64,000 nt of DNA, from NCBI GenBank assembly GCA_029742005.1, contig GCA_029742005.1_4113.1. One strand, given 5' to 3'. A program made the position numbers and the translations under genes. Below, in pieces: positions 2,123-52,236 of the stretch. The notes beneath the pieces were generated by a model that was not told the origin of the DNA, made no database searches, and was given only the letters and a program-made list of their open reading frames with translations. Source of the stretch: a phage. Numbering within the stretch: the stretch's first letter is position 1; each line of letters starts with the position of its first letter.

Positions 2123-2141
2123 TGATAATGAGGAAACTAAT

Positions 2142-2285
2142 ATGAAAACTTGTCAATGTGGTAAAAAATCTATTACTGGTTTAAAGCGGGGCGTTGCACT
2201 TTGCCAGTACCATTATAATTTACAAGTATGGGGTAAAGAATGGGCCGACCAGGTGGAAGCAGCAAAGAAAGCAAAAAGTAAGTAA
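2142..2285 (+). CDS. small Cys-containing protein (47 aa)
   Basis: hand-called; RBS GAGGAA; translation MKTCQCGKKS..CQYHYN; below track cutoff. Confidence 0.45.
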   Translation: MKTCQCGKKSITGLKRGVALCQYHYNLQVWGKEWADQVEAAKKAKSK

Positions 2286-2304
2286 AAATATTATCACAGT
2301 ACTA

Positions 2305-2333
2305 TTGACATAGTTTGATAGTACTGGCATAAT
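2305..2333 (+). promoter_or_regulatory. class-2 promoter (AGTACT-flanked, no stem-loop)
   Basis: TTGACA 2305-2310, 17-nt spacer, CATAAT; same architecture at 5159 and 11379. Confidence 0.55.
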
Positions 2334-2366
2334 AGATTTTATCAAGACAACTAAGAGGAAATTAAA

Positions 2367-2711
2367 ATGGCTAATATCAACACTATCGCAAAACAAAATA
2401 TCAACCTGTCTTCTGTTGAAGTTGTACATATTGCCGCTCGGCGTTGGTTCCAGGCTTCATATGGTAACACTTATTTCTCTTTAAGTGTAGACGTAGAAAT
2501 TGATGGTAATTTTATTGAAGTAGTAAACGTGCCGTTCCAATATGGATACGGGGATCACTTTGACACTGTAGCAATGGAAGAATTTAGCAAGGTTATTAAT
2601 ATGGAAGATAAGGAGTTTACACGCGGAACGTACCTTTCACGTTTTTGCCGTGATAATAATATCACTGTTTATAGTTCTGTTAGTGATGTTAAACGCAAAA
2701 AAGATCTTTAA
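2367..2711 (+). CDS. hypothetical protein (paralog of 8255..8578)
   Basis: ORF track; RBS AAGAGGA; shares GNTY..Y..VKRKKD with 8255 ORF. Confidence 0.7.
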   Translation: MANINTIAKQNINLSSVEVVHIAARRWFQASYGNTYFSLSVDVEIDGNFIEVVNVPFQYGYGDHFDTVAMEEFSKVINMEDKEFTRGTYLSRFCRDNNITVYSSVSDVKRKKDL

Positions 2712-2791
2712 TTAGCTTTACTTTATGCAGATACTTTGATATAGTGTCTGCATAGGGGAAAGAAATTAAATTAACTTAAGAGGATAGTATA

Positions 2792-3061
2792 ATGAAAAAT
2801 ATCAGTACTTTAATCGATGCAGGTACACATGTTCGGCGGTCAATGGTTGCAACCAGTACTACAAAACAAGTAGCGAGCGGTTATCTTGTATTTGTGCACG
2901 ATGGTAAACTCCTGGAACGTTCAATCAATTTTGATGTTAAAAACAATTGCCGTTTTATTATCTTTCGCCGTGAACAATATAAGATCGACATTCCAGCGAA
3001 GCCCATTAGCGGGGCGTATAACGTCTATTCATTGTTTGAGCGTCAACCATACACCTATTAA
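2792..3061 (+). CDS. hypothetical protein
   Basis: ORF track; RBS AAGAGGA. Confidence 0.6.
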   Translation: MKNISTLIDAGTHVRRSMVATSTTKQVASGYLVFVHDGKLLERSINFDVKNNCRFIIFRREQYKIDIPAKPISGAYNVYSLFERQPYTY

Positions 3062-3112
3062 TCAAAACATCGTTAGCGGTTGATTTAGGCCGCTTATATT
3101 GAGGATTATACC

Positions 3113-3385
3113 ATGAACGTTAATCAAGTACTGAATGAGATCGAAAGCATCATTAAACCGATGAAGCGTACTGATGCTATGTTAACACCGGAAGAATGCC
3201 GCCTATATGAGCGTTATAGCGTCGAACAAGTCCAGGCAATGGCTATGGCTACCCCAGCCGTTAAACCGCCTGAGAATGCGTTACAGGACGTTACAGGGGA
3301 TTATATCATCAATCCAGTACTAGGGAAGATGGCTGCAATCACCGAAGATCAACAAGACTACTTAAGCCAGTACTTAAAAGGTTAA
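3113..3385 (+). CDS. hypothetical protein
   Basis: ORF track; RBS GAGGA. Confidence 0.65.
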   Translation: MNVNQVLNEIESIIKPMKRTDAMLTPEECRLYERYSVEQVQAMAMATPAVKPPENALQDVTGDYIINPVLGKMAAITEDQQDYLSQYLKG

Positions 3386-3390
3386 TTAAT

Positions 3391-3600
3391 ATGCTTACTG
3401 TACAGGATAAGATCGACATCTTAAAGGTTAATATGTATGTGATTGATGCCGTACCTGGTAAAGTATTTGCATACGATGATAGTACTGTAAGCGATTTCTA
3501 CTATAGCCAGGACGTGGGGGATCTTTCTGTACAGTCGGTTATTGAAAACGTAGTTAATGCAGCGTATGAGCATTTACTTTCAAATAGTACTTGCAATTAG
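3391..3600 (+). CDS. hypothetical protein
   Basis: ORF track; 3' end overlaps next promoter. Confidence 0.55.
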   Translation: MLTVQDKIDILKVNMYVIDAVPGKVFAYDDSTVSDFYYSQDVGDLSVQSVIENVVNAAYEHLLSNSTCN

Positions 3601-3650
3601 TTTTTAAACGCGTATAATGTTTTACATGAAGGGGAGAAATGATTCTCCCC
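3591..3650 (+). promoter_or_regulatory. early promoter plus 5' stem-loop (PeSL-like)
   Basis: TTGCAA, TATAAT 3613-3618, hairpin GGGGAGAAATGATTCTCCCC 3631-3650. Confidence 0.6.
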
Positions 3651-3669
3651 ACTAATTAAGGAATATGAA

Positions 3670-3816
3670 ATGAAAGCATCAAAAAAGAGTAATACCAAGA
3701 AAGCATGTTCACCTTTCGCTGGGGTATTCCCTTTACGTTTCGTTGATGAAGTAGTTTCCTACCCGCCGGGCCTTACTCCTGAGATGGTAGAAAGTTTGCG
3801 TAAATCTAAAAAATAG
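3670..3816 (+). CDS. small hypothetical protein (48 aa)
   Basis: hand-called; RBS AAGGAA; below track cutoff. Confidence 0.45.
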   Translation: MKASKKSNTKKACSPFAGVFPLRFVDEVVSYPPGLTPEMVESLRKSKK

Positions 3817-3819
3817 TAC

Positions 3820-3879
3820 TTGCAATTAGTTTTTAGTACTGTATAATAGTTTACATGAAGGGGAGAAATGGTTCTCCCC
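3820..3879 (+). promoter_or_regulatory. early promoter plus 5' stem-loop (PeSL-like)
   Basis: TTGCAA 3820-3825, TATAAT 3842-3847, hairpin GGGGAGAAATGGTTCTCCCC. Confidence 0.6.
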
Positions 3880-3897
3880 AATAACAGGAGAATCAAA

Positions 3898-4050
3898 ATG
3901 AAACAATACAACGCTCGGTTTGATGTTACTATCGGTAACGGCAAAGGTCAATTCTCTTTCAGTACTCGCAAAAGTTATACAGAAAACTTCCTGCGTAATT
4001 GTGCACTGACCGCCGCACAAATTAAACATTATTTTCAGGCTAAAAAATGA
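3898..4050 (+). CDS. small hypothetical protein (50 aa)
   Basis: track ORF 3868..4050 starts inside the stem-loop; start moved to ATG 3898 behind RBS AGGAG. Confidence 0.5.
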   Translation: MKQYNARFDVTIGNGKGQFSFSTRKSYTENFLRNCALTAAQIKHYFQAKK

Positions 4051-4136
4051 AAACATTAGCTTACTATAGTTCGGCCCTGGTCGGTGCATTGATCGCGGCG
4101 TTGTTAGTAACCTATCTATTCTTTATGGTGATTTAA
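4047..4136 (+). CDS. putative small hydrophobic peptide (29 aa)
   Basis: hand-called; ATGA overlap with upstream stop; single hydrophobic helix. Confidence 0.3.
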   Translation: MKTLAYYSSALVGALIAALLVTYLFFMVI

Positions 4137-4280
4137 ATGAATCCAACAGGTTTAAACTATAAAAGTTGTTCGGCGTTTACGAAAGCAAATAAAGCGAATG
4201 CACGTAAAGCGAAAGTACAGGAATACATCAAGCAAGGCATGACGCGAAAGGCGGCGATTCTAAAAGCTAAAAATAAATGA
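4137..4280 (+). CDS. small basic protein (47 aa)
   Basis: hand-called; TAAATG overlap; Lys-rich. Confidence 0.35.
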   Translation: MNPTGLNYKSCSAFTKANKANARKAKVQEYIKQGMTRKAAILKAKNK

Positions 4281-4470
4281 AAAAAGTGGTTGACTCCGGT
4301 CAGCCATTTTGCTATTATATATTCATTGAGAGATAGCTCACTAGCCCACAGGGTGCATAAGTGTATCTATTATATAAGTATTGAGTACTGAAAACTATTT
4401 TTAAAAAGTACTTGCAAACTATCTCAATTGGCGTATAATGTTTTACATCGCAAGGGGAAACGGTTTCCCC
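4281..4470 (+). repeat. intergenic cassette copy 1: hairpin, conserved core, early promoter, 5' stem-loop
   Basis: AAAAAG-TGGTTGACTCCGGTCAGCCA-TTTT hairpin; core AGCCCACAGGGTGCATAAGTGTATC; TTGCAA 4412-4417, TATAAT 4434-4439. Confidence 0.6.
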
Positions 4471-4490
4471 TGGTAATAAGGAAACGAATC

Positions 4491-4832
4491 ATGACTATCT
4501 CAATTGCTCAATCTAACTTTGAAAACGAAATCATCGCCCAGGCACTGCGTTTAAATGATGGTCGGGCCGAAATTAATTACGGTTTCAATTCAGGCGGTTG
4601 CGAAAAATATCAGTACTTTGTAACGGCTGATGGCGGTGTCCTGGGGATCAATACAGTTATTGTAAACATTCAGAAAATTAATTTCAATGATCCAGAAGAT
4701 AGCCAGTTTTACATCACGGGTGTGAACGTGAACTATGAGGATGATTATCTAACTGATGATCACACTGGCGAGAAGTTAGAAAGTGCATACGGTGAAGATG
4801 ATTATCAGTCCGGTCCAGAAGATTTTGAATAA
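4491..4832 (+). CDS. hypothetical protein (acidic C-terminus)
   Basis: track ORF 4428..4832 starts in the promoter; start moved to ATG 4491 behind RBS AAGGAA. Confidence 0.7.
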   Translation: MTISIAQSNFENEIIAQALRLNDGRAEINYGFNSGGCEKYQYFVTADGGVLGINTVIVNIQKINFNDPEDSQFYITGVNVNYEDDYLTDDHTGEKLESAYGEDDYQSGPEDFE

Positions 4833-4846
4833 TATTAAAAAATAGT

Positions 4847-4906
4847 TTGACAATAGATTATAGTACTGTATAATAAGTTACATCAAGGGGAGAAATGATT
4901 CTCCCC
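4847..4906 (+). promoter_or_regulatory. early promoter plus 5' stem-loop (PeSL-like)
   Basis: TTGACA 4847-4852, 17-nt spacer, TATAAT 4870-4875, hairpin GGGGAGAAATGATTCTCCCC. Confidence 0.65.
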
Positions 4907-4927
4907 CACTAACAAAGAGAAAACAAA

Positions 4928-5140
4928 ATGGCTAATATCTGCACTGTACTGAAAAATGCAAAACAAGTTTTATTTTCTGATCATGAAAATTTCAACAAGG
5001 ATATTACGGGCGTTCGGAATATCAAAGATGTAAAAAGTGTTATGGGTATCTATTGCAATATGAAACGTGTTGGTACGTTCGGCGACAAAGTACTATACCA
5101 GGCAGGGGATTATAACTTTACATTAACCATTATCAATTAA
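4928..5140 (+). CDS. hypothetical protein
   Basis: ORF track; RBS AAGAGA. Confidence 0.65.
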   Translation: MANICTVLKNAKQVLFSDHENFNKDITGVRNIKDVKSVMGIYCNMKRVGTFGDKVLYQAGDYNFTLTIIN

Positions 5141-5158
5141 AATATATTACCAGTACTA

Positions 5159-5187
5159 TTGACAATGATTGATAGTACTGGCATAAT
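5159..5187 (+). promoter_or_regulatory. class-2 promoter
   Basis: AGTACTATTGACA..GATAGTACTGGCATAAT. Confidence 0.55.
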
Positions 5188-5231
5188 AACTTTTATCAAC
5201 AGTAGTTAACTTAACAAAAGAGAGAAACAAA

Positions 5232-5375
5232 ATGATCGCACTAGATTCATTCATCGACGCAGTACTGGCAAAAACTGGCGAGGATCTGACCGCAGAACAA
5301 TACGCGATGATCGAACAATGTCAGCAAAACGGTAAATCGGTGAAAGATACTGTTAAGATTATCCGCAAGATGTAA
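5232..5375 (+). CDS. small hypothetical protein (47 aa)
   Basis: hand-called; RBS AAGAGAGA; followed by terminator. Confidence 0.5.
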   Translation: MIALDSFIDAVLAKTGEDLTAEQYAMIEQCQQNGKSVKDTVKIIRKM

Positions 5376-5380
5376 GATTA

Positions 5381-5410
5381 TAGCCCACTGGTTAACGCTG
5401 GTGGGCTATA
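5381..5410 (+). terminator. terminator-like hairpin containing a Chi octamer
   Basis: TAGCCCAC..GTGGGCTA stem; GCTGGTGG at 5397-5404; weak T-tract. Confidence 0.5.
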
Positions 5411-5677
5411 ATTCATTACCCTATACAATGCCAGTACTAAACCGTTTATCTCGTTAGAATGCGTTACAGGACGTTTGACAATGATTAGCATGAAATCAGT
5501 ACAAAAACAAATAGAAACATTATCAAAAATTAAACGTAAACAATACTCCTTAGAATATAATATCAATGGTAACTATCATCTAATGAAAGAAAATAATTTT
5601 ATAGTCATTGATGAATCATTGCAAATTATTAGTATAGTACTGAAAGCATTAATCAATGACAGAAAAAAGTTAAAATA

Positions 5678-5935
5678 ATGGCTGTAGGATTCGCGAAAGA
5701 CGGGGCCGAGCAAGACGAGATTAACGCAGTGATTCAGGCCGCCGTAAACCACGCTAGAAAGCAAATTAACGCACAAATAGAATCACTGATACATTGCCGC
5801 GACTGCGGCGATATAATCCCTGAGAAACGACGCCAGGCCGTTAAGGGATGTAAGTACTGCATAACTTGCCAGGAGGATCATGATAGTACTTTTAAACGTC
5901 CCCCGCGTAATTGTTGGCATAGATCTATGAGATAA
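5678..5935 (+). CDS. TraR/DksA-like C4 zinc-finger protein (putative)
   Basis: ORF track; CxxC..CxxC pattern (CRDC..CKYC) in a basic ~85-aa protein. Confidence 0.5.
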   Translation: MAVGFAKDGAEQDEINAVIQAAVNHARKQINAQIESLIHCRDCGDIIPEKRRQAVKGCKYCITCQEDHDSTFKRPPRNCWHRSMR

Positions 5936-5941
5936 AAAGTA

Positions 5942-5999
5942 TTGACAGTACTATCCAGTAGTGTTATAGTACTTACATCAAGGGGAAACATCTTCCCCT
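5942..5999 (+). promoter_or_regulatory. early promoter plus 5' stem-loop (PeSL-like)
   Basis: TTGACA 5942-5947, TATAGT, hairpin AGGGGAAACATCTTCCCCT. Confidence 0.55.
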
Positions 6000-6016
6000 A
6001 CTAAGAGGAAATGAAA

Positions 6017-6205
6017 ATGGAAAACTTATCAAGTATTTTAGTACAAGATGATTTCGGTAATCCTGGAAGTGCTATCATTGTTCGGGGTAATAAAGCAACA
6101 TTTGTTATTGCTGGTGGACCTGTACAGCGTAGCATTAAAAACAATGCCGTTACTATTAATAATGTACGCTATCGCTTAGATAAAGAATTGATTCATAAAC
6201 TGTAA
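6017..6205 (+). CDS. hypothetical protein
   Basis: ORF track frame; second ATG 6017 better spaced from RBS AAGAGGA. Confidence 0.6.
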   Translation: MENLSSILVQDDFGNPGSAIIVRGNKATFVIAGGPVQRSIKNNAVTINNVRYRLDKELIHKL

Positions 6206-6232
6206 TATTAATTTAATAGAGGATAACAATAA

Positions 6233-6556
6233 ATGTACATTCATACTACTATCACAAAGGAAGTCCGTTGCCAGTTCGAAAGTATTCCGGGCGTATGTTT
6301 CATCACTGGTACGTTTTCCCCTGGTGATCGTGATAATCCAGTACTGTTACAATTACGCCATCCATCATGGGATAAAGCATTTGATCTACCGTTGAATGAA
6401 TTCGCAACTACTGCTGAAAAGTACATTAAAAATATTCGCGAGAATGATCGACTATTCATTAATGCTTTTAGTGATTCCGCGTTAAGCGAGATCCACGGCG
6501 TATTGGTTGCAATCATGGAATCAATGGAGAAAACTAAATTCAAACAAGGTGAATAA
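6233..6556 (+). CDS. hypothetical protein
   Basis: ORF track; RBS AGAGGA. Confidence 0.65.
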   Translation: MYIHTTITKEVRCQFESIPGVCFITGTFSPGDRDNPVLLQLRHPSWDKAFDLPLNEFATTAEKYIKNIRENDRLFINAFSDSALSEIHGVLVAIMESMEKTKFKQGE

Positions 6557-6562
6557 AAACTA

Positions 6563-6622
6563 TTGACAATGTAATCTAGTACTGTATAATAAGTTACATG
6601 AAGGGGAGAAATGATTCTCCCC
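6563..6622 (+). promoter_or_regulatory. early promoter plus 5' stem-loop (PeSL-like)
   Basis: TTGACA, TATAAT 6585-6590, hairpin GGGGAGAAATGATTCTCCCC. Confidence 0.65.
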
Positions 6623-6639
6623 ACTGAGAGGAAAGAAAA

Positions 6640-6852
6640 ATGCAAGGTCAACTAATCGTTCGTAAATGGTCTGATACTAACGAAAAACCGTGGGATGTAC
6701 AATACATCGGACCGGACGGTGTTTCACGTTATCAACCTGGCGTAACGCATAGTACTGAGCAATATGCCGCCGCTCACCGCGAACGCCTGTTAGAATCCAT
6801 GAAACAGGGATTCTGTGAAAAATTCATTCAAGATCATTGGCTGAAAGATTAA
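6640..6852 (+). CDS. hypothetical protein
   Basis: ORF track; RBS GAGAGGAAAG. Confidence 0.65.
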   Translation: MQGQLIVRKWSDTNEKPWDVQYIGPDGVSRYQPGVTHSTEQYAAAHRERLLESMKQGFCEKFIQDHWLKD

Positions 6853-6869
6853 TATAAGGAGTACAGCTT

Positions 6870-6962
6870 ATGCAAATGAATCCGATGATTATTGTTTTAG
6901 CTGTACTTATGATCATTCATGCAATTGTAGAAGTATTAACGCAATCAGGAGTAATAAAATGA
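6870..6962 (+). CDS. putative small membrane peptide (30 aa)
   Basis: hand-called; RBS TAAGGAG; hydrophobic. Confidence 0.4.
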   Translation: MQMNPMIIVLAVLMIIHAIVEVLTQSGVIK

Positions 6963-7132
6963 TTCAAGTAGAATTATCAGTACTGAAAGATCTGTTTTAT
7001 CGGATTGGTACTACTGGCGAATATCCGAAGGGTGATAATGCAAAACTTTACGTATCACTCGACTTATGGCAACGCGAACAATTAGCAACAGCGTGGCGTA
7101 AAGGTAAAGCAGATCGCGAGGTGAAAGCATGA
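6959..7132 (+). CDS. small hypothetical protein (57 aa)
   Basis: hand-called; ATGA start/stop overlap. Confidence 0.45.
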   Translation: MIQVELSVLKDLFYRIGTTGEYPKGDNAKLYVSLDLWQREQLATAWRKGKADREVKA

Positions 7133-7278
7133 AAGAATTCTTATTCGAAGTAGTGTTCCAGGGCGTAGGAAGTAACCAACTGATTCGATCAAGTGGTTAC
7201 AATGTTAACCAGGCATGGAATAACATTAAACAAATGTACCCGAACGCTATCACCTATCGCAACCCAAAACAAGTTTAA
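7129..7278 (+). CDS. small hypothetical protein (49 aa)
   Basis: hand-called; ATGA overlap. Confidence 0.4.
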   Translation: MKEFLFEVVFQGVGSNQLIRSSGYNVNQAWNNIKQMYPNAITYRNPKQV

Positions 7279-7494
7279 AAAGAATTGAAAAAGGGATTGA
7301 CTCCGGTCAGTCCCTTTGCTATTATATATTCATTGAAACAATCTAGCCCACAGGGTGCATAAATGTATCTATTGTTTGCTGGTGGCTAGTACTATCAAGT
7401 ACTGAAAACTATTTTTAAAAAGTACTTGCAAAGTATCACGATAAGCGTATAATGTTTTACATCAGGACGGGGAACGAAACAAGTAACTCCCCGT
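7279..7494 (+). repeat. intergenic cassette copy 2
   Basis: GGGATTGACTCCGGTCAGTCCC hairpin, conserved core, Chi GCTGGTGG 7378-7385, TTGCAA/TATAAT 7447-7452, stem-loop ACGGGGA..TCCCCGT. Confidence 0.6.
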
Positions 7495-7543
7495 TAAGTA
7501 GTCCAGGAGTAAGACATACGAAAACCTCCCCTGATAAAATAGT

Positions 7544-7571
7544 TTGACAATAGAAATTAAACGAGTATAAT
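7544..7571 (+). promoter_or_regulatory. sigma70-like promoter
   Basis: TTGACA 7544-7549, 16-nt spacer, TATAAT 7566-7571. Confidence 0.6.
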
Positions 7572-7601
7572 ACTTACATCAACCACAAAGAGGAATACAA
7601 A

Positions 7602-7802
7602 ATGAAACATTTTACTTTCGGTGTAGTAGGCTTTACAGTATCCAGCGGCGTTTATAAATCAGAACGCGGTGCTAAAAATGCAGCAAGTCGGGCGTATGGT
7701 TCACAGCGTGACTTACAGGTCGGTTATATTAGTAACATTAATAACATGTTTATTCCTGTTTCACAGCGTAAAGCGGGTAACATGAAATGGGAAACAATTT
7801 GA
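7602..7802 (+). CDS. hypothetical protein
   Basis: ORF track; RBS AAGAGGAA. Confidence 0.65.
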   Translation: MKHFTFGVVGFTVSSGVYKSERGAKNAASRAYGSQRDLQVGYISNINNMFIPVSQRKAGNMKWETI

Positions 7803-7811
7803 TAAAATAGT

Positions 7812-7870
7812 TTGACAATAGTTTTTAGTACTGTATAATAGTTTACATCAAGTGGGGAATAGTTCCCCAC
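7812..7870 (+). promoter_or_regulatory. early promoter plus 5' stem-loop (PeSL-like)
   Basis: TTGACA 7812-7817, TATAAT, hairpin GTGGGGAATAGTTCCCCAC. Confidence 0.65.
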
Positions 7871-7891
7871 CTAACAAAGAGAGAAATTAAA

Positions 7892-8167
7892 ATGCGGATT
7901 CTACTGACAGCTAACGAAATCGAGCAAGTACTGACTACTAACCTGGAAGACTGGAAACGTGATGCAGATATCCAGGCGGTTCAATGCCTTAACGATAAGT
8001 TAACGCCAGATGACTTAAGCACGATTGTTGATCCACAATTTTATGAAGATATTCACGACATGGATTTAAGCGTAGAGGATGTACTTGATAAGCACTACAT
8101 TGATACTGATTTACAGGTTTACGGTCGTAAAAACTTTATCACTATTCACGACATTTACAATACTTAA
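7892..8167 (+). CDS. hypothetical protein (acidic)
   Basis: ORF track; RBS AAGAGAGA. Confidence 0.7.
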   Translation: MRILLTANEIEQVLTTNLEDWKRDADIQAVQCLNDKLTPDDLSTIVDPQFYEDIHDMDLSVEDVLDKHYIDTDLQVYGRKNFITIHDIYNT

Positions 8168-8170
8168 GTA

Positions 8171-8231
8171 TTGACAAAGTATCTTAGTACTGTATAATAG
8201 TTTACATCAAGTGAGGGGAATGGTTCCCCTC
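8171..8231 (+). promoter_or_regulatory. early promoter plus 5' stem-loop (PeSL-like)
   Basis: TTGACA 8171-8176, TATAAT 8193-8198, hairpin GAGGGGAATGGTTCCCCTC. Confidence 0.65.
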
Positions 8232-8254
8232 CTAACAAAAAGAGAGAAATTAAA

Positions 8255-8578
8255 ATGGCTATGATCCTTACCCAGAAAGTAGAAATGAAAATTGTAACTT
8301 CCTTTGACATTAAAGTTAATCGGTGGACTGATAGCCACGGCAATACTTACCACTCATGCTACGTGTCTGCATTGATTGGTGACCGCTGGGAAGACCTGGG
8401 ACATGAAACCTTTACTTACGGTTACGGTACACAAGGCGAATACACGGGCTTGGAGATCATTAAAGAAACTGTAATAGGTTTCAACCCGAAAGAGAAAGTA
8501 CTACACAGAATTGAGGATGAGATCAACAAAGAAATTACAGTTCGTTACTACGATGTAAAACGTAAGAAAGACATGTAA
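8255..8578 (+). CDS. hypothetical protein (paralog of 2367..2711)
   Basis: ORF track; shared GNTY..YGYG..VKRKKD signature. Confidence 0.7.
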   Translation: MAMILTQKVEMKIVTSFDIKVNRWTDSHGNTYHSCYVSALIGDRWEDLGHETFTYGYGTQGEYTGLEIIKETVIGFNPKEKVLHRIEDEINKEITVRYYDVKRKKDM

Positions 8579-8600
8579 TAGAATCCATTTAAAGTACTAT

Positions 8601-8629
8601 TTGACATTACCCAGATAGTACTTTATAAT
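8601..8629 (+). promoter_or_regulatory. sigma70-like promoter
   Basis: TTGACA 8601-8606, 17-nt spacer, TATAAT 8624-8629. Confidence 0.6.
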
Positions 8630-8677
8630 AGACTCTAACTTGTAGTACTAATTAACTTAACTAATAGGATGTACACC

Positions 8678-9073
8678 ATGATTACTAAATTCTTCGCTAC
8701 CCGTGAACAAGCTCGCATCGTTGCCCGTGAAGAAGGTGAAACATTTAAAGACATGGGCAAAGATGCACCGAAAGGACAACGCTGGGCGGTACAGTTCAAA
8801 GAGATCTCTGATATTGTGAATTCACCTGAACCAGTACTTACTGAAGCAGAACTAAAGCAAGCTCAAGAACTGGCTGAAGTACTGAACGCTCAAGATGACT
8901 TCTTGGAAGGTTCTGATATTCAAGTACAAGTGAATAGTAATGCATGGACTCACGCGGATCACCTGGCAAACCTTAAGCGTCCAAGTGAACTGATTCGTAA
9001 CCAGAAAGAGATCCGTCATGACCGTAAAGGAAACCGTGTAACAGTATACAGTAAACGCCGCCAGGTTATCTAA
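8678..9073 (+). CDS. hypothetical protein
   Basis: track frame 8669..9073; ATG 8678 better spaced from RBS AGGAT. Confidence 0.7.
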   Translation: MITKFFATREQARIVAREEGETFKDMGKDAPKGQRWAVQFKEISDIVNSPEPVLTEAELKQAQELAEVLNAQDDFLEGSDIQVQVNSNAWTHADHLANLKRPSELIRNQKEIRHDRKGNRVTVYSKRRQVI

Positions 9074-9095
9074 TAACTTGCAGTACTAACAACAC

Positions 9096-9122
9096 GGCGG
9101 GTTCAGTTCCCGCCTTTTTTAT
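9096..9122 (+). terminator. rho-independent terminator
   Basis: GGCGGG-TTCAGTT-CCCGCC then T6. Confidence 0.75.
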
Positions 9123-9135
9123 AGGATAAACTAAA

Positions 9136-9390
9136 ATGATGAAGGTACAACTATCTAAAGATAATATCTTGCGGGTACACTATAAAGCACCACAGAGAAT
9201 CATCACAAAGGCCGTACAGCTTGCTAATGAGTTTATTAATGGTAGTCTATTACCCAGGAAGTTAAGCAACGGAAAACTACGTGTTATCGATGTAGACACT
9301 AACAATAGAATAGTAATTGAGAGTACTGGAAAAATTAATCTATATGAACACCAACAATACAATAAAAAAATAAAACTAATATCACGTTGA
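9136..9390 (+). CDS. hypothetical protein
   Basis: ORF track; RBS AGGA; AT-rich. Confidence 0.45.
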   Translation: MMKVQLSKDNILRVHYKAPQRIITKAVQLANEFINGSLLPRKLSNGKLRVIDVDTNNRIVIESTGKINLYEHQQYNKKIKLISR

Positions 9391-9415
9391 CAGTACTCAA
9401 TTGTTTTAGTATTAT
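9387..9415 (+). promoter_or_regulatory. sigma70-like promoter (duplicated at 9666)
   Basis: TTGACAGTACTCAATTGTTTTAGTATTAT. Confidence 0.55.
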
Positions 9416-9446
9416 GTATCTATACCAACACAGAGAGAGAAACAAA

Positions 9447-9665
9447 ATGAAATTATCTAAAATCGAAAAGAAAACTATTGATGAAGCAGTGAAGCACGGT
9501 TATACCTTTCGTAATGATTCACATTTTACCAATTTTCAACAAGGGTATCGTACTATTAAAAAACTAATTGACAAAGGTTTATTAGTTGAAGTCAATAACG
9601 GCAATGGCATTGAGTATCAACCAACACAAGACGCATTATCACTAAAGAAATATTCTATTATCTAA
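9447..9665 (+). CDS. hypothetical protein
   Basis: track ORF 9387..9665 starts at the -35 box; start moved to ATG 9447. Confidence 0.6.
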   Translation: MKLSKIEKKTIDEAVKHGYTFRNDSHFTNFQQGYRTIKKLIDKGLLVEVNNGNGIEYQPTQDALSLKKYSII

Positions 9666-9694
9666 TTGACAGTACTCAAATGTTTTAGTACTAT
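9666..9694 (+). promoter_or_regulatory. sigma70-like promoter (near-identical copy of 9387)
   Basis: TTGACAGTACTCAAATGTTTTAGTACTAT. Confidence 0.55.
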
Positions 9695-9722
9695 GTACGC
9701 ATACCAACACGGGGAAAACAAA

Positions 9723-9950
9723 ATGATTACTTTAGAAAAACGTATCAAAGAGACTACAACGCTGGTGGAACTGTTAACCGTTCTTAAATGCCGGGTAACT
9801 CCATTCAGTACACCGGACTTTATCAACATGGTGGACGTTAACGGTCGATATCGTATTGCGGTCGAACAAGGTACGGCAAAAGTATTCAGTACTAAAAATA
9901 CGCGTGAAGTATTCCACGCAGTTCAAGTAAAAAAAAGTAGTTGCCATTGA
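9723..9950 (+). CDS. hypothetical protein
   Basis: track ORF 9666..9950 starts at the -35 box; start moved to ATG 9723. Confidence 0.6.
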   Translation: MITLEKRIKETTTLVELLTVLKCRVTPFSTPDFINMVDVNGRYRIAVEQGTAKVFSTKNTREVFHAVQVKKSSCH

Positions 9951-9997
9951 TAGTAAAGTACTGTAATATAGTTTCATTAACTCAAGGAGTCAACACA

Positions 9998-10582
9998 ATG
10001 CGTAACTATACTAAATTCATCCGTTCACTTCATGCAATGGAAACCAACAAAGAGATCCTTTCAGCTTGTCGGTTAGCTGGACTGGAGATCGTCGGTGCGG
10101 GTTCTTCCCGTATTGTATTCGCTTTAAATGATCGGTTAGTGATTAAGGTCGCGAATTGTGATGCGGGTGTAGAACAAAATGAAACTGAATGTAAGGTATG
10201 GAATTTTTTAGATTATGACCGTCCGCACCTTAAACAGTTCTTTGCCAAGGTGCATATGCATTTATGCGATCCTGATAATCTGTTTATTGTTATGGATCGT
10301 TTGAGTACTGCAAGCAAAGGCAGTGTAAAGCATGTAAACGCGTGCAATGAGTTAAAGTACAATATTAAACGTAATACGGTAGAACGCCAACACCATTTCG
10401 CTGATGCTCTCAATCACGTTGATGATACATTATCCACACTAACGATAAGAGATATCAGAAAACAGAATATCGGCCAGGATCGCAACGGCTTGATTAAAGT
10501 ACTTGATTACGGTTTAACCCGCAATATCTGGAATCAGTACTATAAAAAACGTGATGTTAACGCGATAACTATAACACGATAA
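9998..10582 (+). CDS. putative protein kinase (eukaryotic-like kinase fold)
   Basis: VIKV (VAIK-like), IRDIRKQNIG (HRD-loop-like), DYG (DFG-like) in order; start moved to ATG 9998 behind RBS AAGGAG. Confidence 0.6.
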   Translation: MRNYTKFIRSLHAMETNKEILSACRLAGLEIVGAGSSRIVFALNDRLVIKVANCDAGVEQNETECKVWNFLDYDRPHLKQFFAKVHMHLCDPDNLFIVMDRLSTASKGSVKHVNACNELKYNIKRNTVERQHHFADALNHVDDTLSTLTIRDIRKQNIGQDRNGLIKVLDYGLTRNIWNQYYKKRDVNAITITR

Positions 10583-10784
10583 AAAAGATTAAAAAAGGGA
10601 TTGACTCCAGTCAGTCCCTTTGCTATTATATATTCATTGAGAGATAACTCACTGACCCATAGGGTGCGGAAGTGTATCTATTATATAAGTATTCAGTACT
10701 GAAAACTATTTGATAAAAAGTACTTGCAAACTATCTCAAAGAGCGTATAATGTTTTATATCGAGAGGGGGAAATGGTTTCCCCT
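10581..10784 (+). repeat. intergenic cassette copy 3
   Basis: GGGATTGACTCCAGTCAGTCCC hairpin, conserved core, TTGCAA 10724-10729, TATAAT 10746-10751, stem-loop GAGGGGGAAATGGTTTCCCCTC. Confidence 0.6.
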
Positions 10785-10803
10785 CAAGTCCAGGAGATAC
10801 ACC

Positions 10804-11067
10804 ATGAACACTATCGAAATCACTATCAATGCACACGTATACGACAACGTAGTACTGCAAACTACTATGACCGCTAACGATACCAGTACTTTGCGGAATA
10901 CTGTTATTAGTGCTGTATGTGCCGCTATCGGTGATGTCGCCCTGGAAAATGCAAAACACGTAAACGATGGTTTCACTATGTGCAAACGTGATAACGCAAA
11001 ACATATCATCGTAGAAGGTTACGGCGGTGTAGAATATAATGTTTATATGAAAAAAGTACTTGCATAG
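10804..11067 (+). CDS. hypothetical protein
   Basis: track ORF 10750..11067 starts in the -10 box; start moved to ATG 10804 behind RBS CAGGAGA. Confidence 0.65.
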   Translation: MNTIEITINAHVYDNVVLQTTMTANDTSTLRNTVISAVCAAIGDVALENAKHVNDGFTMCKRDNAKHIIVEGYGGVEYNVYMKKVLA

Positions 11068-11115
11068 TACTGAATAAAGCGTATAATGTTTTGCATAGGG
11101 GGAGATATCCTCCCC
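11060..11115 (+). promoter_or_regulatory. early promoter plus 5' stem-loop (PeSL-like)
   Basis: TTGCAT, TATAAT 11082-11087, hairpin GGGGGAGATATCCTCCCCC. Confidence 0.6.
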
Positions 11116-11134
11116 CACTAAAAGGAGTATTAAA

Positions 11135-11359
11135 ATGGCTAACTTTGATGAACTGATGCGGGAAGTAGCTAACCTGGCAGAAGAGAAGAAATCATTCGAT
11201 TCTATCTATAACACCGCTCACCGTGATTCAGTACTGGCATGTAACCAGGATCAAAAAGATGAACTAATCGCCACATATCATGAAGCATGGAAGTACTACC
11301 GACAATGGGAGAAAGAAGAAAGCGAGTCTACCATCGAAGGTATCAATAATCTAATCTAA
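11135..11359 (+). CDS. hypothetical protein
   Basis: ORF track; RBS AAAGGAG. Confidence 0.7.
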   Translation: MANFDELMREVANLAEEKKSFDSIYNTAHRDSVLACNQDQKDELIATYHEAWKYYRQWEKEESESTIEGINNLI

Positions 11360-11378
11360 AAGTTTTATTTCAGTACTA

Positions 11379-11407
11379 TTGACATAGCTTGATAGTACTG
11401 ATATGAT
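11379..11407 (+). promoter_or_regulatory. class-2 promoter
   Basis: AGTACTATTGACA..GATAGTACTGATATGAT. Confidence 0.5.
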
Positions 11408-11434
11408 AACTTTACTAACTAAAGGGGAAACATA

Positions 11435-11692
11435 ATGGAACAGTTCACACAATATCGGGTAAATCCTCAAGCGATGGCCTACGTAGAAGACCATAAAACG
11501 TTACCAGTACTGCAACCAGTTAAAGGCCATATCTATCGTGCAATGTCGTGGAGTGCGGCCCAGGATGGATATAAAACCGTCGCCGTGGGGATGTATTGCG
11601 GGAATGGTGAATGGTTTGATCCTAACAATCCGATTGCACTTGACAGTACTGAAAAAATGAAATGGGCCGACTACATCGAAGATATTTCATAA
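11435..11692 (+). CDS. hypothetical protein
   Basis: ORF track; RBS AAAGGGGAA. Confidence 0.7.
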   Translation: MEQFTQYRVNPQAMAYVEDHKTLPVLQPVKGHIYRAMSWSAAQDGYKTVAVGMYCGNGEWFDPNNPIALDSTEKMKWADYIEDIS

Positions 11693-11698
11693 AAACTA

Positions 11699-11760
11699 TT
11701 TGACAGTACTAACCAGTAATGTATAATGTTTTACATAGAGCGGGGGAATAGTTCTCCCGC
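11699..11760 (+). promoter_or_regulatory. early promoter plus 5' stem-loop (PeSL-like)
   Basis: TTGACA 11699-11704, 17-nt spacer, TATAAT, hairpin GCGGGGGAATAGTTCTCCCGC. Confidence 0.65.
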
Positions 11761-11782
11761 CAATAGTTTGGAGTAAAACATT

Positions 11783-11983
11783 ATGTCTATCGCTATCGCC
11801 CTGGTTGAAGTACTGAAAGAAGCTAAAGCCAACCTTATCGATGTACAGATTAAGGAATTGCAAAACGGCTTAATCGGCTGTACTTGTACCGCTGGTGGAG
11901 CGGCAGACTATCGAGAACACGAATCACTCGAATCACTGGTTCGGTATCTTACCATGATCGTTGATGATTGGAGAATCATCTAA
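11783..11983 (+). CDS. hypothetical protein
   Basis: ORF track; RBS GGAG. Confidence 0.65.
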   Translation: MSIAIALVEVLKEAKANLIDVQIKELQNGLIGCTCTAGGAADYREHESLESLVRYLTMIVDDWRII

Positions 11984-12208
11984 CAAAAAAGAATAAAAAA
12001 GGGATTGACTCCGGTCAGTCCCTTTGCTATTATATACGCATAGACAAAAACTAGCCCACTGGGTGCATAAGTGTATCCAAAATATATAGTTAATAACGGT
12101 GAGTAACTATCTGCTGGTGGAGTGAAAACTATTAATAAAAAAAGTATTGACAAAGTATATCAGTACTGCGATAATGTATCTCGTAGGGCGGCAATGGTGC
12201 GACGGCCC
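11984..12208 (+). repeat. intergenic cassette copy 4 (most diverged)
   Basis: GGGATTGACTCCGGTCAGTCCC hairpin, core GCCCACTGGGTGCATAAGTGTATC, Chi 12113-12120, TTGACA/GATAAT promoter, GC-rich stem-loop. Confidence 0.55.
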
Positions 12209-12228
12209 ACAAAGTTAGGAGATTCAAA

Positions 12229-12561
12229 ATGACTACTTCAATCGCTATCGTTAAAGCTTTCATCCGTACTAATGTTTCCTCTGTATTCATCGACGGCCTC
12301 GACCGTAACGTAGAATACTCAATCATTATCGCACAAACGGCAAACGGTTCTCGGTACATCCTGAATGATAGTGAAGCAAATCACTACTACTTCACTAAAG
12401 CCACTGGCTTTAAACGCATCGATGCTGATGTAGTATACGCTAAGATGAATAAGCTGGTAGATAAGATTAACGCTAAAGGTACTATAGATTTACAGTACTG
12501 GACCGAAACCGATCCAGAATATGGATCTCACCGCTACCTGAATCCAGGTATTAAAATGTAA
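12229..12561 (+). CDS. hypothetical protein
   Basis: ORF track; RBS TAGGAGA. Confidence 0.7.
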   Translation: MTTSIAIVKAFIRTNVSSVFIDGLDRNVEYSIIIAQTANGSRYILNDSEANHYYFTKATGFKRIDADVVYAKMNKLVDKINAKGTIDLQYWTETDPEYGSHRYLNPGIKM

Positions 12562-12568
12562 AAAGTAC

Positions 12569-12630
12569 TTGCATAGTACTTAGATTCATGTATAATGTTT
12601 TACATAGAGAGGGGGAAATGGTTCTCCCTC
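12569..12630 (+). promoter_or_regulatory. early promoter plus 5' stem-loop (PeSL-like)
   Basis: TTGCAT 12569-12574, TATAAT 12591-12596, hairpin GAGGGGGAAATGGTTCTCCCTC. Confidence 0.6.
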
Positions 12631-50114: not shown

Positions 50115-50147
50115 AGGACGGGATTTGTTATCTCGTCCTTTTTTTGT
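50115..50147 (+). terminator. rho-independent terminator
   Basis: AGGACG..CGTCCT hairpin then T7. Confidence 0.7.
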
Positions 50148-50157
50148 CTGGAGATGT

Positions 50158-51012
50158 ATGAAACTTTATCTAATCGTTGACTACAATAAGGATTATGCTG
50201 GTAACTTCACCGAAGATTCGGATGGATATTGCACATCGACTAATGTCAATGTACGTAGCAGTAGTGCTCATGAACATGAATCTTGTAAAAATCTAAAAGA
50301 TTTTATCGCATACCGAGCATTTGAAAAGAACTTCTGCCGCAGTAGATATTCGAAGTTTGAGTACCCGTTAATTGATGTTCCTGATGATTTAATGTTCCAG
50401 TTAATGCTGACTGGAGTTCAAGATTATGATTACATAGCGTATAATCATATTACTAAGAAAATTTATATTGGTACATCATCACATGACACTTCTATGTATG
50501 CATCATGCCCAGATGATCGAATGAATGATAGAAAATCATACTATAGTGGGTCAGTTGGTTTAAATGATTCATTAAATAAAAATTCATTCTTTGAGTATGT
50601 TTATGATTACCATCATGAGAAAAAAGAACGTGAAGATTACTGTATAGCAATTGATAGTACTAATGGTTATGAAGACGTGAAAGAAGCACTTATGCCGTAC
50701 ATTATTGAAAAGTACTACAAAGATTTTCAGTACTGTAGTAATTTTCTAATCAGAAATTCTATTATAATCGGTCGCCAATCTAGTGCATACTCTCAGTACT
50801 ATAATGATTCACCAGTAGCATCGGCAAATGAAATGTGTGATATTTTACAAATTCCACGTGAAGATATGGCATTCATTTTTACATCTTTTATTGAAGATGA
50901 TGAGTTGTATATTAAAAATAAACACCGTTTCATGCCAAGCAAGATTGAGGTTATTCGAAGTTTTAGTGTTGATATACTAACAAATTTCACAGAAAAAACC
51001 GAATATAACTGA
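50158..51012 (+). CDS. hypothetical protein (284 aa, fam2-like motif)
   Basis: track ORF 50125..51012 starts in the terminator; start moved to ATG 50158 behind RBS GGAG; motif DDLMFQLMLTG. Confidence 0.6.
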   Translation: MKLYLIVDYNKDYAGNFTEDSDGYCTSTNVNVRSSSAHEHESCKNLKDFIAYRAFEKNFCRSRYSKFEYPLIDVPDDLMFQLMLTGVQDYDYIAYNHITKKIYIGTSSHDTSMYASCPDDRMNDRKSYYSGSVGLNDSLNKNSFFEYVYDYHHEKKEREDYCIAIDSTNGYEDVKEALMPYIIEKYYKDFQYCSNFLIRNSIIIGRQSSAYSQYYNDSPVASANEMCDILQIPREDMAFIFTSFIEDDELYIKNKHRFMPSKIEVIRSFSVDILTNFTEKTEYN

Positions 51013-51042
51013 GACAAATGATAAGTTAATGATATAATATAA

Positions 51043-51075
51043 GGTGACAACATAATATGTTAGTCACCTTTTTTA
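51043..51075 (+). terminator. rho-independent terminator
   Basis: GGTGAC..GTCACC hairpin then T6. Confidence 0.7.
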
Positions 51076-51690
51076 ATCCTGAAAGGTTCCCATAAGGAAA
51101 TGATTAAAAGCCTAATCCACTCGAAAATGTAGAGGGTAGATGAGTAGTCCTTTCAGTACGAACAGCAGATGAAACCCGTTAGATGATGGCATAGTTTGAA
51201 CCACTCACGGCAATGCGGCTGTATAAAGAACTCCAATAGGATAAAGAGAGTTCCTCGATAGACATATAAGGATCGCACCTTACCAATTATCTAAGGGAGA
51301 TTTCATAAGAAATATGCGGTCGGAATTATACAATATAGTTGCGTCCAAATTTTGTGAAATCAAATACAAGTACTGGTCATATGGTATTTGTATTATGTGT
51401 CGGGATGTTTAAGACCGACGACCGTTGCTACAAGAACCGCGATAGAGAGAAACAGAGCAACCCGCTTTCGTCTCGTAAGAGAATTCGTGATATGAACTAT
51501 GTGAAGGCCACCAGCGTCAAACTTTTTTTGTTCTTTCCCCTGCGGGGGGATGAAATATGCTCAAGCAAACCCCGTCAATATTAATTAAAAGAAAATAGTA
51601 CTTGTAGAATTAGACATGCGTAGCATGGTAATTCTACTGATGTTGATGCAATCAACGTCACGTATATTCATTGATGTTTCCATAGGAATA

Positions 51691-52236
51691 ATGATGGCAT
51701 TTATTAGAAAAGAAAAAACTGTTACTTATAAAACTTTGAATTTTGATGATTGCATTAATCAATCACAAGACGAAGATATCTTTACTGGATATGTGGTTAT
51801 TAAAGAAAAAGGATGCATTTCTTATATAAAGGAATTACAAAATGGAATTGAAGTGACTTCAGTTAAATTACTTCCTACTCAAAAACCAACAATATCAAAA
51901 GCCCAGTATGGTAATTATTTTGAAGAAAGATATAGTAATAATTCAATAAGTGTTAAGGCTCATATTATTAAAGGAGAACTAGAAGGAGAATATAGAAAAT
52001 ACAACCCACAAGGAAAATGTGTTTGGGTTAAATACTTCAATTCAGGATATGATGTAACATCTGAAATTATAGAATTCTTGGGTTTAAAATGTACCCCTGA
52101 GACTATTCATGATTACAAGTTCAATACTGAAGAAGAGTTTAATCTGATGATGCGTTACGGTTCACATTTTAAATTTTTATATGAATATAACATTGACAGT
52201 AGTACTTTTGATAAGATAGTACACAACTGTCTCTAA
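51691..52236 (+). CDS. hypothetical protein
   Basis: track frame 51616..52236; start moved to ATG 51691 behind RBS AGGAA. Confidence 0.55.
   Translation: MMAFIRKEKTVTYKTLNFDDCINQSQDEDIFTGYVVIKEKGCISYIKELQNGIEVTSVKLLPTQKPTISKAQYGNYFEERYSNNSISVKAHIIKGELEGEYRKYNPQGKCVWVKYFNSGYDVTSEIIEFLGLKCTPETIHDYKFNTEEEFNLMMRYGSHFKFLYEYNIDSSTFDKIVHNCL

Follow-up and report, generated by a model that had tools for sequence, protein, structure and literature searches.

What does a phage genome carry in several hundred nucleotides that lie between two complete genes and hold no credible open reading frame (ORF)? This question is raised by positions 51013 to 51690 of a 64,000-nt stretch of phage DNA (GenBank assembly GCA_029742005.1, contig GCA_029742005.1_4113.1), hereafter termed the window. 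An initial annotation, based on the letters of the DNA, had singled out 51076-51690 as a GC-richer island without convincing ORF and had put forward two candidates, a structured non-coding RNA (ncRNA) and the decayed remnant of an inserted gene. Our analysis indicates that the segment from ~51010 to ~51580 on the + strand is very probably a self-contained gene for a large ncRNA (~530 nt) with several pseudoknots, belonging to a family not described before.

Conservation and copy number of the element

Over a 1-kb stretch around the element, the window is 99.7% identical to Escherichia phage 121Q (KM507819, Asteriusvirus) and 87-99% identical to ~30 further jumbo coliphages of the 121Q/PBECO4 group, which identifies it, as judged from these matches, as a 121Q/PBECO4-type jumbo coliphage (a window position x corresponds to approximately x + 141,733 in 121Q). 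When a 615-bp query confined to the gap was compared with a 1001-bp query that included the flanks, the former gave the higher identity in phages UB (99.3% vs 94.2%), slurp01 (98.5% vs 93.6%), and WPEC5 (95.2% vs 88.4%), indicating that the gap is more conserved than the flanking genes. Both of these genes are complete and have end-to-end PHROG matches: the upstream ORF (50125-51012; stop codon TGA at 51010-51012) matches phrog_15199, and the downstream gene, gene 416, matches phrog_16210 and starts at ATG 51691/51694, with AGGA at 51684-87 ahead of the start. Between the upstream stop and this start (51013-51690) no credible ORF is present, as had been noted at the outset; the 81-aa ORF at 51339-51584 is without PHROG match and is spurious, and each of the six frames holds at least 5 stops in all 10 homologous copies tested. 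The higher GC content first remarked upon is real (39.5% vs 33.7% for the window), but the excess is modest, as the segment reaches only the 92nd percentile among 615-nt windows.

The core of the element (query positions ~30-525) was detected by blastn at 66-75% identity in distant phage genera, including Mimasvirus and Eneladusvirus; the phages concerned come from Salmonella, Klebsiella, Erwinia, Serratia, Yersinia, Cronobacter, Pectobacterium, and Xanthomonas hosts. All those records contain a syntenic gap of ~700 bp, either unannotated or holding tiny PHANOTATE ORFs. BLAST placed the element at 4-5 sites per phage record; self-BLAST within the 64-kb window returned no second copy, the paralogues lying outside it. 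Phage 121Q carries four copies, all on the + strand and each within an unannotated gap: one at 90.3 kb after a sigma-factor gene, the window copy at 192.8 kb, P3 at 247.5 kb, which overlaps the dubious minus-strand 'gene 516', and P4 at 326.7 kb, where genes 594 and 595 on either side are both on the minus strand. Searched with a covariance model of the 3' core, 121Q yielded precisely these four copies (99-114 bits), the next best match scoring 18 bits; the window copy scored 111.5 bits with this 3' core domain model (R1). Two kinds of annotated gene inside RNA copies are almost certainly spurious, namely 121Q gene 516 (minus strand, L006 42799-42954) and the small ORFs M2K_0050-0053 of SHEFM2K (L002 1715-2285). 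Other unannotated gaps of 121Q, at L005 37194-39161 (121Q 135194-137161, ~2 kb), L004 25776-26057, and L004 28353-28705, contained no member of the RNA family in a covariance model scan.

A pattern of two invariant blocks, GACCGT...AGAAAY.G...RACCCGCTT, was found at 44 places in IMG/VR, 4-5 per genome, and all 44 matches lie on jumbo-phage contigs (~350-378 kb) or fragments thereof; an earlier scan of this database with an exact 15-mer had yielded mostly chance matches, and an nhmmer filter was therefore applied. A pattern for the 5' domain added a fifth, more divergent lineage in Mimasvirus- and Eneladusvirus-type genomes. Across genera the paralogues cluster by genomic locus, and the map positions of the copies are conserved (~30, 175, 260, and 335 kb of ~355 kb). 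From the clustering it follows that the duplications would predate the genera and that each copy is separately maintained; every Rak2-like jumbo phage carries 4-5 such ancient paralogues.

Covariation and the fold of the RNA

RNAalifold, applied to 37 copies, returned 76 pairs, 48 of which show compensatory double changes. In this alignment 97.1% of the cells are paired vs 34-45% when the partners are slid, the covariation score is 0.489 vs 0.06-0.10, and none of 500 shuffles attained the observed values. Phage, metagenome, and bacterial copies were then pooled (147 nhmmer hits, 89 unique full-length copies, 67 clusters at 97% identity) and submitted to an unbiased scan for stacked column pairs with double-sided covariation; this double-sided and stacking criterion replaced that of a first all-against-all scan, which was too permissive since it admitted one-sided G-U changes. 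The column-pair search recovered the helices again and added three pseudoknots. The full model, based on 64 non-redundant copies, comprises 86 pairs in 16 helices, including the three pseudoknots, with 95.1% of the cells paired vs 35-43% with slid partners, double changes at 65 pairs (28-38 when slid) and in 1005 cells (103-149 when slid), and a covariation score of 0.522 vs 0.06-0.11; again 0/500 shuffles reached the observed values. At many pairs G-U alternates with G-C or A-U, and since this alternation works on the + strand only, the + strand is the functional one.

Among 420 well-aligned columns, 84 are invariant and 152 (~36%) are at least 90% conserved, with pairwise identity going down to 53%. 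The invariant segments, unpaired in many cases, include GAAACCCGUUAG, CACGGCAAUGCGGC, GAUAGACAUAUA, UAAGGGA, ACGACCGU, and AGAAAC...ACCCGCUU. Purifying selection on the pseudoknotted architecture is thus strong, and it acts in several genomic contexts. Taken together, the covariation at 65 of the 86 pairs, the three pseudoknots, a promoter of its own (see below), and the conservation across genera strongly support the structured ncRNA that had been listed as a candidate, and the segment at ~51045-51580 (+) is, by this comparative evidence, to be read as a large structured RNA, neither junk nor a decayed gene.

Parts of the RNA in the window copy

All parts are given on the + strand. The 5' domain (51079..51159) consists of P1, P2, P3, the junction GAUGAG, and the pseudoknot PK1. 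P1 (CUGAAAGG/CCUUUCAG, 51079-86/51149-56) shows double-sided changes at 7/8 pairs and P2 (UUCC/GGAA, 51087-90/51096-99) at 5/5; P3 (51112-22/51132-39) carries the loop GAAAAUGUA, and PK1 (GUA/UAC, 51144-46/51157-59) is 100% paired, its middle pair being UA in 31 sequences, AU in 22, and CG in 11. Next come P4 (ACAGC/GCUGU, 51162-66/51218-22) and P5 (CCGU/ACGG, 51176-79/51207-10), both 100% paired, whose region (51162..51222) encloses the invariant GAAACCCGUUAG and a swappable module, here a GGCAUAGUUUGAACC hairpin, followed by the invariant CACGGCAAUGCGGCU. This peripheral element closing P5 is interchangeable and occurs in four forms, the smallest being a bare UUCG-type tetraloop, as in the CCCG-UUCG-CGG hairpin of copies L115, L122, L136, and L224.

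P6 (GAACUC/GAGUUC, 51228-33/51248-53) has compensatory changes at 6/6 pairs, and its 5' strand reads GAACUC, GCAUGA, GAAACA, or GAAGUA across the family. It is followed by the conserved junction GAUAGACAUAUAAGG (51257-71), by P7 (UAAG/CUUA, 51267-70/51279-82), in which UAAGGGA is invariant in 64/64 sequences, and by the invariant UAAGGGAG (51292-99). P8 (GAU/AUC, 51299-301/51359-61), with 3/3 pairs covarying, closes an optional module bearing the motif UACAAUAUAGUUGCGUCCAAAUUUU; the module is missing from some paralogue lineages, where the motif sits inside P13, and UACAAUAUAG(A/U)UNCGUCCAAAAUUU is accordingly found either in the P8 module or within P13. The 3' core as a whole (51363..51496) comprises P9 to P13, PK2, and PK3. 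P9 is a long hairpin (51363-74/51383-94), the loop of which forms PK2 (GUCAUAU/AUAUGAA, 51376-82/51490-96), compensatory at 7/7 pairs and 99.6% paired. The remaining elements are P10 (UGUC/GACG, 51398-401/51417-20), PK3 (GUUGC/GCAAC, 51424-28/51457-61; 100% paired), P11 (CGCGA/UCGUG, 51438-42/51485-89; 5/5 pairs covarying), P12 (GAGAG/CUUUC, 51445-49/51465-69), and P13 (CUC/GAG, 51472-74/51479-81).

Downstream of the core, within 51497..51536, lies the conserved and apparently unpaired block CCACCAGCGUCAA (51508-20), followed by a U-run (51523-29). The Chi complement reported earlier, CCACCAGC, is present in this block at 51508-51515, but it is incidental because most family members carry CTATCATC at that position. 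The GC hairpin seen near 51548, CCCCTGCGGGGGG at 51537-51549, proved to be the conserved G-run hairpin P14 (CCCC-UGCG-GGGG, 51537-40/51545-48), which is 99% paired and alternates solely between C-G and U-G. The final conserved block of the family is the tail CAAGCAAACCCCGUCAA, which runs to 51578, and the GGGG and CGUCA blocks of P14 and the tail are invariant across the family. Two direct repeats, CGUCA(A/G), stand at 51515-51520 and 51573-51578, on either side of the U-run and P14; depending on the clade, both repeats end in A or both end in G, and this concerted change suggests that they share a partner, for instance a protein or one site with which both pair.

Promoter, terminators, and the downstream gene

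The RNA element is preceded on the + strand by a -35-like box, TGAGACA (51010..51016), which overlaps the TGA stop codon of the upstream ORF (51010-12), and, 16-17 nt further, by an extended -10 element, TGaTATAAT (51030..51038). In a promoter scan of the window copy, this appears as GAGACA, 16 nt, and TATAAT with the TG extension (10/12 matches), and transcription is predicted to start at ~51044-51046. An extended -10 (TGnTAnnnT) occurs at the equivalent place in 77 of the 89 unique copies, and nearly all phage copies have a TGAAACG, TGGAACG, TGAGACA, or GGGACA box ~16 nt 5' of TGnTATAAT. A 'divergent RpoD-like' promoter, lying mostly upstream of DNA-synthesis genes, has been reported for phages CBB and GAP32 (PMC5259590), and the promoter of the RNA corresponds to it. 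On the + strand of the 121Q-type genome, the pattern occurs 16 times vs 1-3 in shuffles, and the same class of promoter stands ahead of several genes, among them those for primase, exonuclease, and topoisomerase II. Occurrences of TG(A/G)(A/G)AC, 14-18 nt, TGnTATAAT in 121Q lie at 5263, 15293, 21683, 27380, 38012, 44765, and 101439, coordinates being given only below 148 kb, beyond which the join of the 121Q reassembly is imperfect. The class looks like a replication-phase ('middle'-like) regulon, and since the RNAs share it with replication genes, they are probably co-expressed with them.

The terminator-like hairpin that the initial annotation had placed at 51043-51075 is present, as GGTGAC...GTCACC at 51043-68 (+) followed by a T-run at 51069-74, and would serve both as terminator of the upstream gene and as predicted 5' leader hairpin of the RNA. 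The GAP32, Munch, and G17 records list the same hairpin as a terminator; a simple terminator scan did not call the one at 51043-74. The order of promoter and hairpin is kept in the syntenic copy of GAP32, CBB, XbC2, Munch, and BF. Because the promoter lies upstream of this 'terminator', the unit begins at ~51010 and not at 51076, where the segment had originally been made to start. In about half of the copies, such as 121Q P3 and P4, an intrinsic terminator is inserted after the core, 5' of the conserved P14 and tail (CAAAUCNCGUCAR); the window copy is without it. In P4, which has its own promoter and its own terminator between minus-strand genes, the inserted hairpin was called as a + strand terminator (L008 24066-83).

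The promoter-like sequence AGTACTTG, with which the island was said to end, does exist at 51597-51604, as part of a UP/-35-like motif, AAATAGTAC-TTGTAG (51593..51607, +), but it lies outside the RNA element and belongs to the next gene. Since it is a member of a recurrent early-promoter motif, it most likely represents the UP/-35 part of the early promoter of gene 416. This motif, AAA(A/T)AGTAC-TTGCAA, was found 15 times in the window vs 4.6 expected (0/100 shuffles reached 15), with the consensus AAA(A/T)AGTACTTGCAA and a clustering at 1.7-12.6 kb of the window. About 10 copies of AAA(A/T)AGTACTTGCA(A/T) were observed on the + strand at 1736-12574, within 11 kb of small ORFs (for example at 2055, 3582, 3811, 4403, 7417, 10715, 11051, and 12560), and look like the UP element and -35 box of early sigma-70 promoters. 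Between the last conserved block and gene 416, at 51604-51657, two further hairpins, GTAGAATTA...TAATTCTAC and GTTGAT-GCA-ATCAAC, were noted, in place of which distant orthologues have different hairpins; they could belong to the 5' untranslated region of gene 416 or extend the RNA at its 3' end in a variable manner.

Copies on bacterial islands

The element is also found outside phage genomes. A full-length copy (396 bits) was detected in 2 of 5,426 complete E. coli genomes, LR-29-1 (NZ_AP027515.1 ~3473200-3483560; L141 5959-16303) and EEC_W5 (H92), on a ~10-kb island beside ffs. This island, between ffs and ybaA, contains a tyrosine integrase disrupted by IS3, the RNA homologue, a serine recombinase, and a DuOB / DUF488 / mSLOG-DUF4326 conflict-system cluster; downstream of the RNA, a further ~700 bp (L141 10550-11259) are unannotated. 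A scan of one genome per bacterial species yielded eight more full-length copies, from Buttiauxella, Silvania, Serratia (two), Enterobacter chinensis, two Enterobacteriaceae genomes, and a 'Clostridium' contig, the nine full-length bacterial copies scoring 277-396 bits. The 'Clostridium sp.' copy, on a 2.8-kb contig of a metagenome-assembled genome (DPOH01000171.1, L148), is of the island type and nearly identical to those of Enterobacterales, and it is most likely a binning contaminant rather than a genuine Firmicutes occurrence.

A recurrent layout emerges from these islands: an integrase of the tyrosine or large serine type is followed by the RNA on the same strand, then by a divergent CI-type repressor (helix-turn-helix, HTH, plus S24 peptidase), a Ner-like HTH_35 protein, and a membrane protein. 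The RNA copies converge on the repressor gene, and the cargo varies (DuOB/DUF488/mSLOG-DUF4326, resolvases, ParB-like proteins). Most island copies have a different promoter, TTGGTATAAT, overlapped by an operator-like palindrome, while the E. coli island copy has a phage-type promoter box resembling that of 121Q P1. The palindrome, TAATGAyAAGAGCrTCATTA (TAATGAnAAGAGCnTCATTA), stands ~35-60 nt 5' of the RNA core in L142, L144, L145, L148, and L149 and their metagenome twins, and may be bound as an operator by the CI-like or Ner-like regulator encoded next to it. By tblastn, the only gene shared between islands and phage was that of the DUF4326/mSLOG protein. No replication genes were found on the complete E. 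coli island or in the 8-kb stretches of the other islands.

Search for known RNA families

Rfam 15 (4227 families) gave no hits over the whole window at the gathering threshold, in agreement with the absence of a known family, and at E up to 10 only chance fragments of snoRNA, miRNA, and sRNA between 50900 and 51800. Likewise, six distant phage orthologues gave nothing at E up to 1, and nine bacterial island loci, searched at the gathering threshold only, gave nothing at the RNA. ARAGORN predicted 0 tRNA or tmRNA genes in the window, in accordance with the earlier remark that no tRNA-like T-arm could be seen.

On these and the preceding data, several classes were set aside. A tRNA or tmRNA is ruled out by ARAGORN (0 genes), with neither T-arm nor tag reading frame present. 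A group I or II intron is countered by uninterrupted flanking ORFs, the location of P4 between opposite-strand genes, and the lack of an RF00028 or RF00029 hit at E up to 10. For a protein-coding gene or pseudogene, the frames are closed in ten copies, the 81-aa ORF has no PHROG, and the helices vary in a compensatory manner. As to a cis-regulatory leader, 121Q P4 and the island copies face convergent genes and P4 has its own terminator, and for known Rfam RNAs, including RNase P, HEARO, OLE, GOLLD, and ROOL, there was no Rfam match. What was found for the element, namely its own promoter, covariation valid on one strand, and non-coding sequence, is what is expected generically of a stand-alone structured ncRNA gene. 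The RNA family is thus previously undescribed and recognised by no Rfam 15 model; the genome papers of CBB, PA5oct, and fEgEco12 do not mention the gaps or the RNAs, and an IMG/VR structured-RNA survey lists candidates of 29-151 nt only, none of them describing these gaps. Two resemblances were noticed by eye and are leads only, with no test behind them: the hammerhead-like motif CUGAUGAG (the family has CAG[A/U]UGAG) and the Shine-Dalgarno-like appearance of UAAGGGAG.

Function of the RNA and alternative explanations

Our confidence is high as regards the RNA gene and its fold, moderate for an action in trans, and low for any specific biochemical function. In the mechanism that we propose, host RNA polymerase would transcribe the RNA from the replication-phase ('middle'-like) promoter as a stand-alone product of ~450-540 nt, which would fold into a compact tertiary core whose invariant unpaired nucleotides may form a binding or catalytic surface. 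The RNA would work in trans as component of a ribonucleoprotein, as a decoy, as a ribozyme, or as an RNA-only assembly of the GOLLD/ROOL type, with a partner presumably conserved across Enterobacterales hosts, and the interchangeable peripheral modules may tell the paralogues apart. We favour a role in trans because the element occurs in freely varying surroundings and next to different neighbours, an island makes do with one copy, and conservation follows a pattern like that of RNase P RNA and tmRNA.

Several points weigh against this interpretation. The promoter of the window copy fires straight into the terminator-like hairpin at 51043-74, which could abort transcripts, and the terminator that about half of the copies have before P14 and the tail does not fit easily with one simple RNA product. 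The energy of single-sequence folding is not better than that of shuffles (z = -0.95 and -0.09); the evidence for the fold is evolutionary, not thermodynamic. The co-orientation of the copies carries no information, because only 34 of 554 CBB ORFs are on the minus strand. The searchable literature holds no transcriptome of an Asteriusvirus, Mimasvirus, or Eneladusvirus phage, and expression, ends, and abundance are inferred from sequence. Moreover, the map positions, the replication-gene promoter, and the islands without visible replication genes fit a role in cis equally well.

Such a role would be that of a replication origin, in which the transcript is a structured pre-primer and a persistent RNA-DNA hybrid near the G-run primes leading-strand synthesis at 4-5 origins per 350 kb, the islands being satellites with one such origin amplified by the replication machinery of a helper phage. 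Two origins of phage T4 are middle-mode promoters, and here the RNA shares its promoter class with the genes for primase, exonuclease, and topoisomerase II. The 4-5 copies keep conserved map positions, with one locus for each paralogue lineage, the U-run near the 3' end is followed by an invariant G6 run, and genes for RNase H and a UvsW-like helicase are present in the phages. The lack of replication genes on the complete E. coli island and in the 8-kb stretches of the others, together with the phage-type promoter box like that of 121Q P1 on the E. coli island copy, would also suit an origin. However, three covarying pseudoknots and ~150 near-invariant positions are not obviously needed by an R-loop primer; neither an AT-rich unwinding element nor iterons nor DnaA boxes were recognised, there is no GC-skew inflection at the locus, the element is not G-rich overall, and most island copies are under a different, operator-controlled promoter. 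We regard an origin as rather unlikely, albeit as the main rival of a role in trans. A cis-regulatory 5' leader of the gene 416 operon, acting as a processive antiterminator (as HK022 put or EAR) or a giant riboswitch, would accord with the absence of a terminator between the window copy or its orthologues and the next, co-oriented gene, and the terminator-like hairpins inside or just 5' of the element would suit an antitermination device. Yet 121Q P4 lies among opposite-strand genes and has a terminator of its own at its end, the RNA on islands is convergent with a repressor gene, the downstream genes vary between paralogues, and gene 416 has its own promoter motif, so that this explanation is very unlikely.

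A selfish or mobile RNA, for instance a group I- or II-like intron without ORF, or the template of a retroelement, spread among phages and islands, appears highly improbable: the copies lie at orthologous intergenic loci across genera, interrupt no genes, and have each their own promoter, the group I and II models of Rfam found nothing at 50900-51800 with E up to 10, and no reverse transcriptase or homing endonuclease is consistently adjacent. This holds despite the several copies per genome, their presence in unrelated backgrounds (phage and integrative island), the recombinases adjoining them on islands, and the ribozyme-like pseudoknotting. Finally, a decayed protein gene, which the initial annotation had entertained, or a plain spacer made of a terminator and promoters might be read from the tiny ORFs that PHANOTATE places in the gap, from the minus-strand gene 516 annotated within paralogue P3, and from the unremarkable single-sequence fold energy. 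It is refuted by the data and has next to no probability left, as the gap outconserves its flanking genes and is conserved across genera, the frames are closed in all tested copies with no frame-preserving pattern and no PHROG hit, and the substitutions are compensatory in the helices.

We thus retain a large, stand-alone structured RNA as the explanation of the gap. The number of paralogues, the covarying pseudoknots, the replication promoter class, and the island habitat point to a core jumbo-phage function missed by annotation. More tentatively, we suggest that the new class of RNA possibly links giant lytic phages with small SOS-type islands, either as an origin that makes the islands satellites or as a ribozyme or RNA-only assembly used in conflict. 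If the origin reading were true, protein-poor islands would live as satellites of jumbo phages, with the helper amplifying and perhaps also packaging them; if the ribozyme or RNA-only assembly reading were true, both phage and island would deploy it in phage-host conflict. To our knowledge, very few large RNAs of complex fold have been described from bacteria and phages (RNase P, tmRNA, group I/II introns, OLE, GOLLD, ROOL, and HEARO), and each earlier discovery of a large RNA opened new biochemistry. As the RNA is present in cultivable E. coli phages (121Q, PBECO4, phAPEC6, and others) and in sequenced E. coli strains, genetic study is immediately possible. In addition, annotation stands to be corrected in dozens of deposited genomes, which leave the ~700-bp gaps empty or fill them with spurious small ORFs.

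Comparison with known systems

With GOLLD and ROOL (RF01998, RF03087), the new RNA shares a length of hundreds of nucleotides, a covarying pseudoknotted structure, carriage by phages or prophages, and the status of a stand-alone gene. GOLLD and ROOL have been shown by cryo-electron microscopy to multimerise (PMC12286853), and the new RNA might do likewise. In contrast to them, the new RNA is without RF01998 or RF03087 match (window, E up to 10; six distant copies, E up to 1), occurs in Enterobacterales hosts and not in Firmicutes or lake metagenomes, does not adjoin tRNA genes, and is present as 4-5 diverged ancient paralogues per genome and beside integrases on small islands.

Similar gaps in other large lytic phages, several hundred nucleotides long and devoid of ORFs, give rise to ncRNA001-004 of PA5oct (PMC7318152) and a ~800-nt transcript of ICP1 (PMC7567579), which are abundant, ORF-less, and defined by RNA-seq. 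PA5oct is a distant relative of 121Q and GAP32, likewise with four ncRNAs. Nevertheless, nhmmer comparison with ncRNA001, 002, and 004 (ncRNA003 was left out) gave a best E of 2.7, off-target, and model R1, run on PA5oct with filters off, reached at most 15.4 bits, with no hit on the same three RNAs. Whereas the PA5oct and ICP1 RNAs have expression data and no published structure, the new family is known from its structure, via sequence alone.

Similarity to ColE1 RNA II and the T4 origins ori(uvsY) and ori(34) lies in a ~500-nt transcript with a dedicated promoter, the folding of which could matter in cis, in a G-run near the 3' end, in the promoter class of replication genes, and in the several copies per T4-like genome. 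These systems differ from the new RNA in that there is no sequence similarity between them, no antisense regulator of the RNA I type was seen, and the tertiary structure and conservation of the new RNA go far beyond the needs of a primer.

RNase P RNA and tmRNA, pseudoknotted housekeeping RNAs that in some cases are carried by phages, resemble it in their 350-550 nt size class, several long-range pseudoknots, and a conserved unpaired core, and ACAGAGCAACCCGCUUUCG is reminiscent of segments of M1 RNA, by eye only and as a lead confirmed by no test. The new RNA stands apart from both: their Rfam models did not match the window stretch even at E up to 10, and it is present at 4-5 copies per genome.

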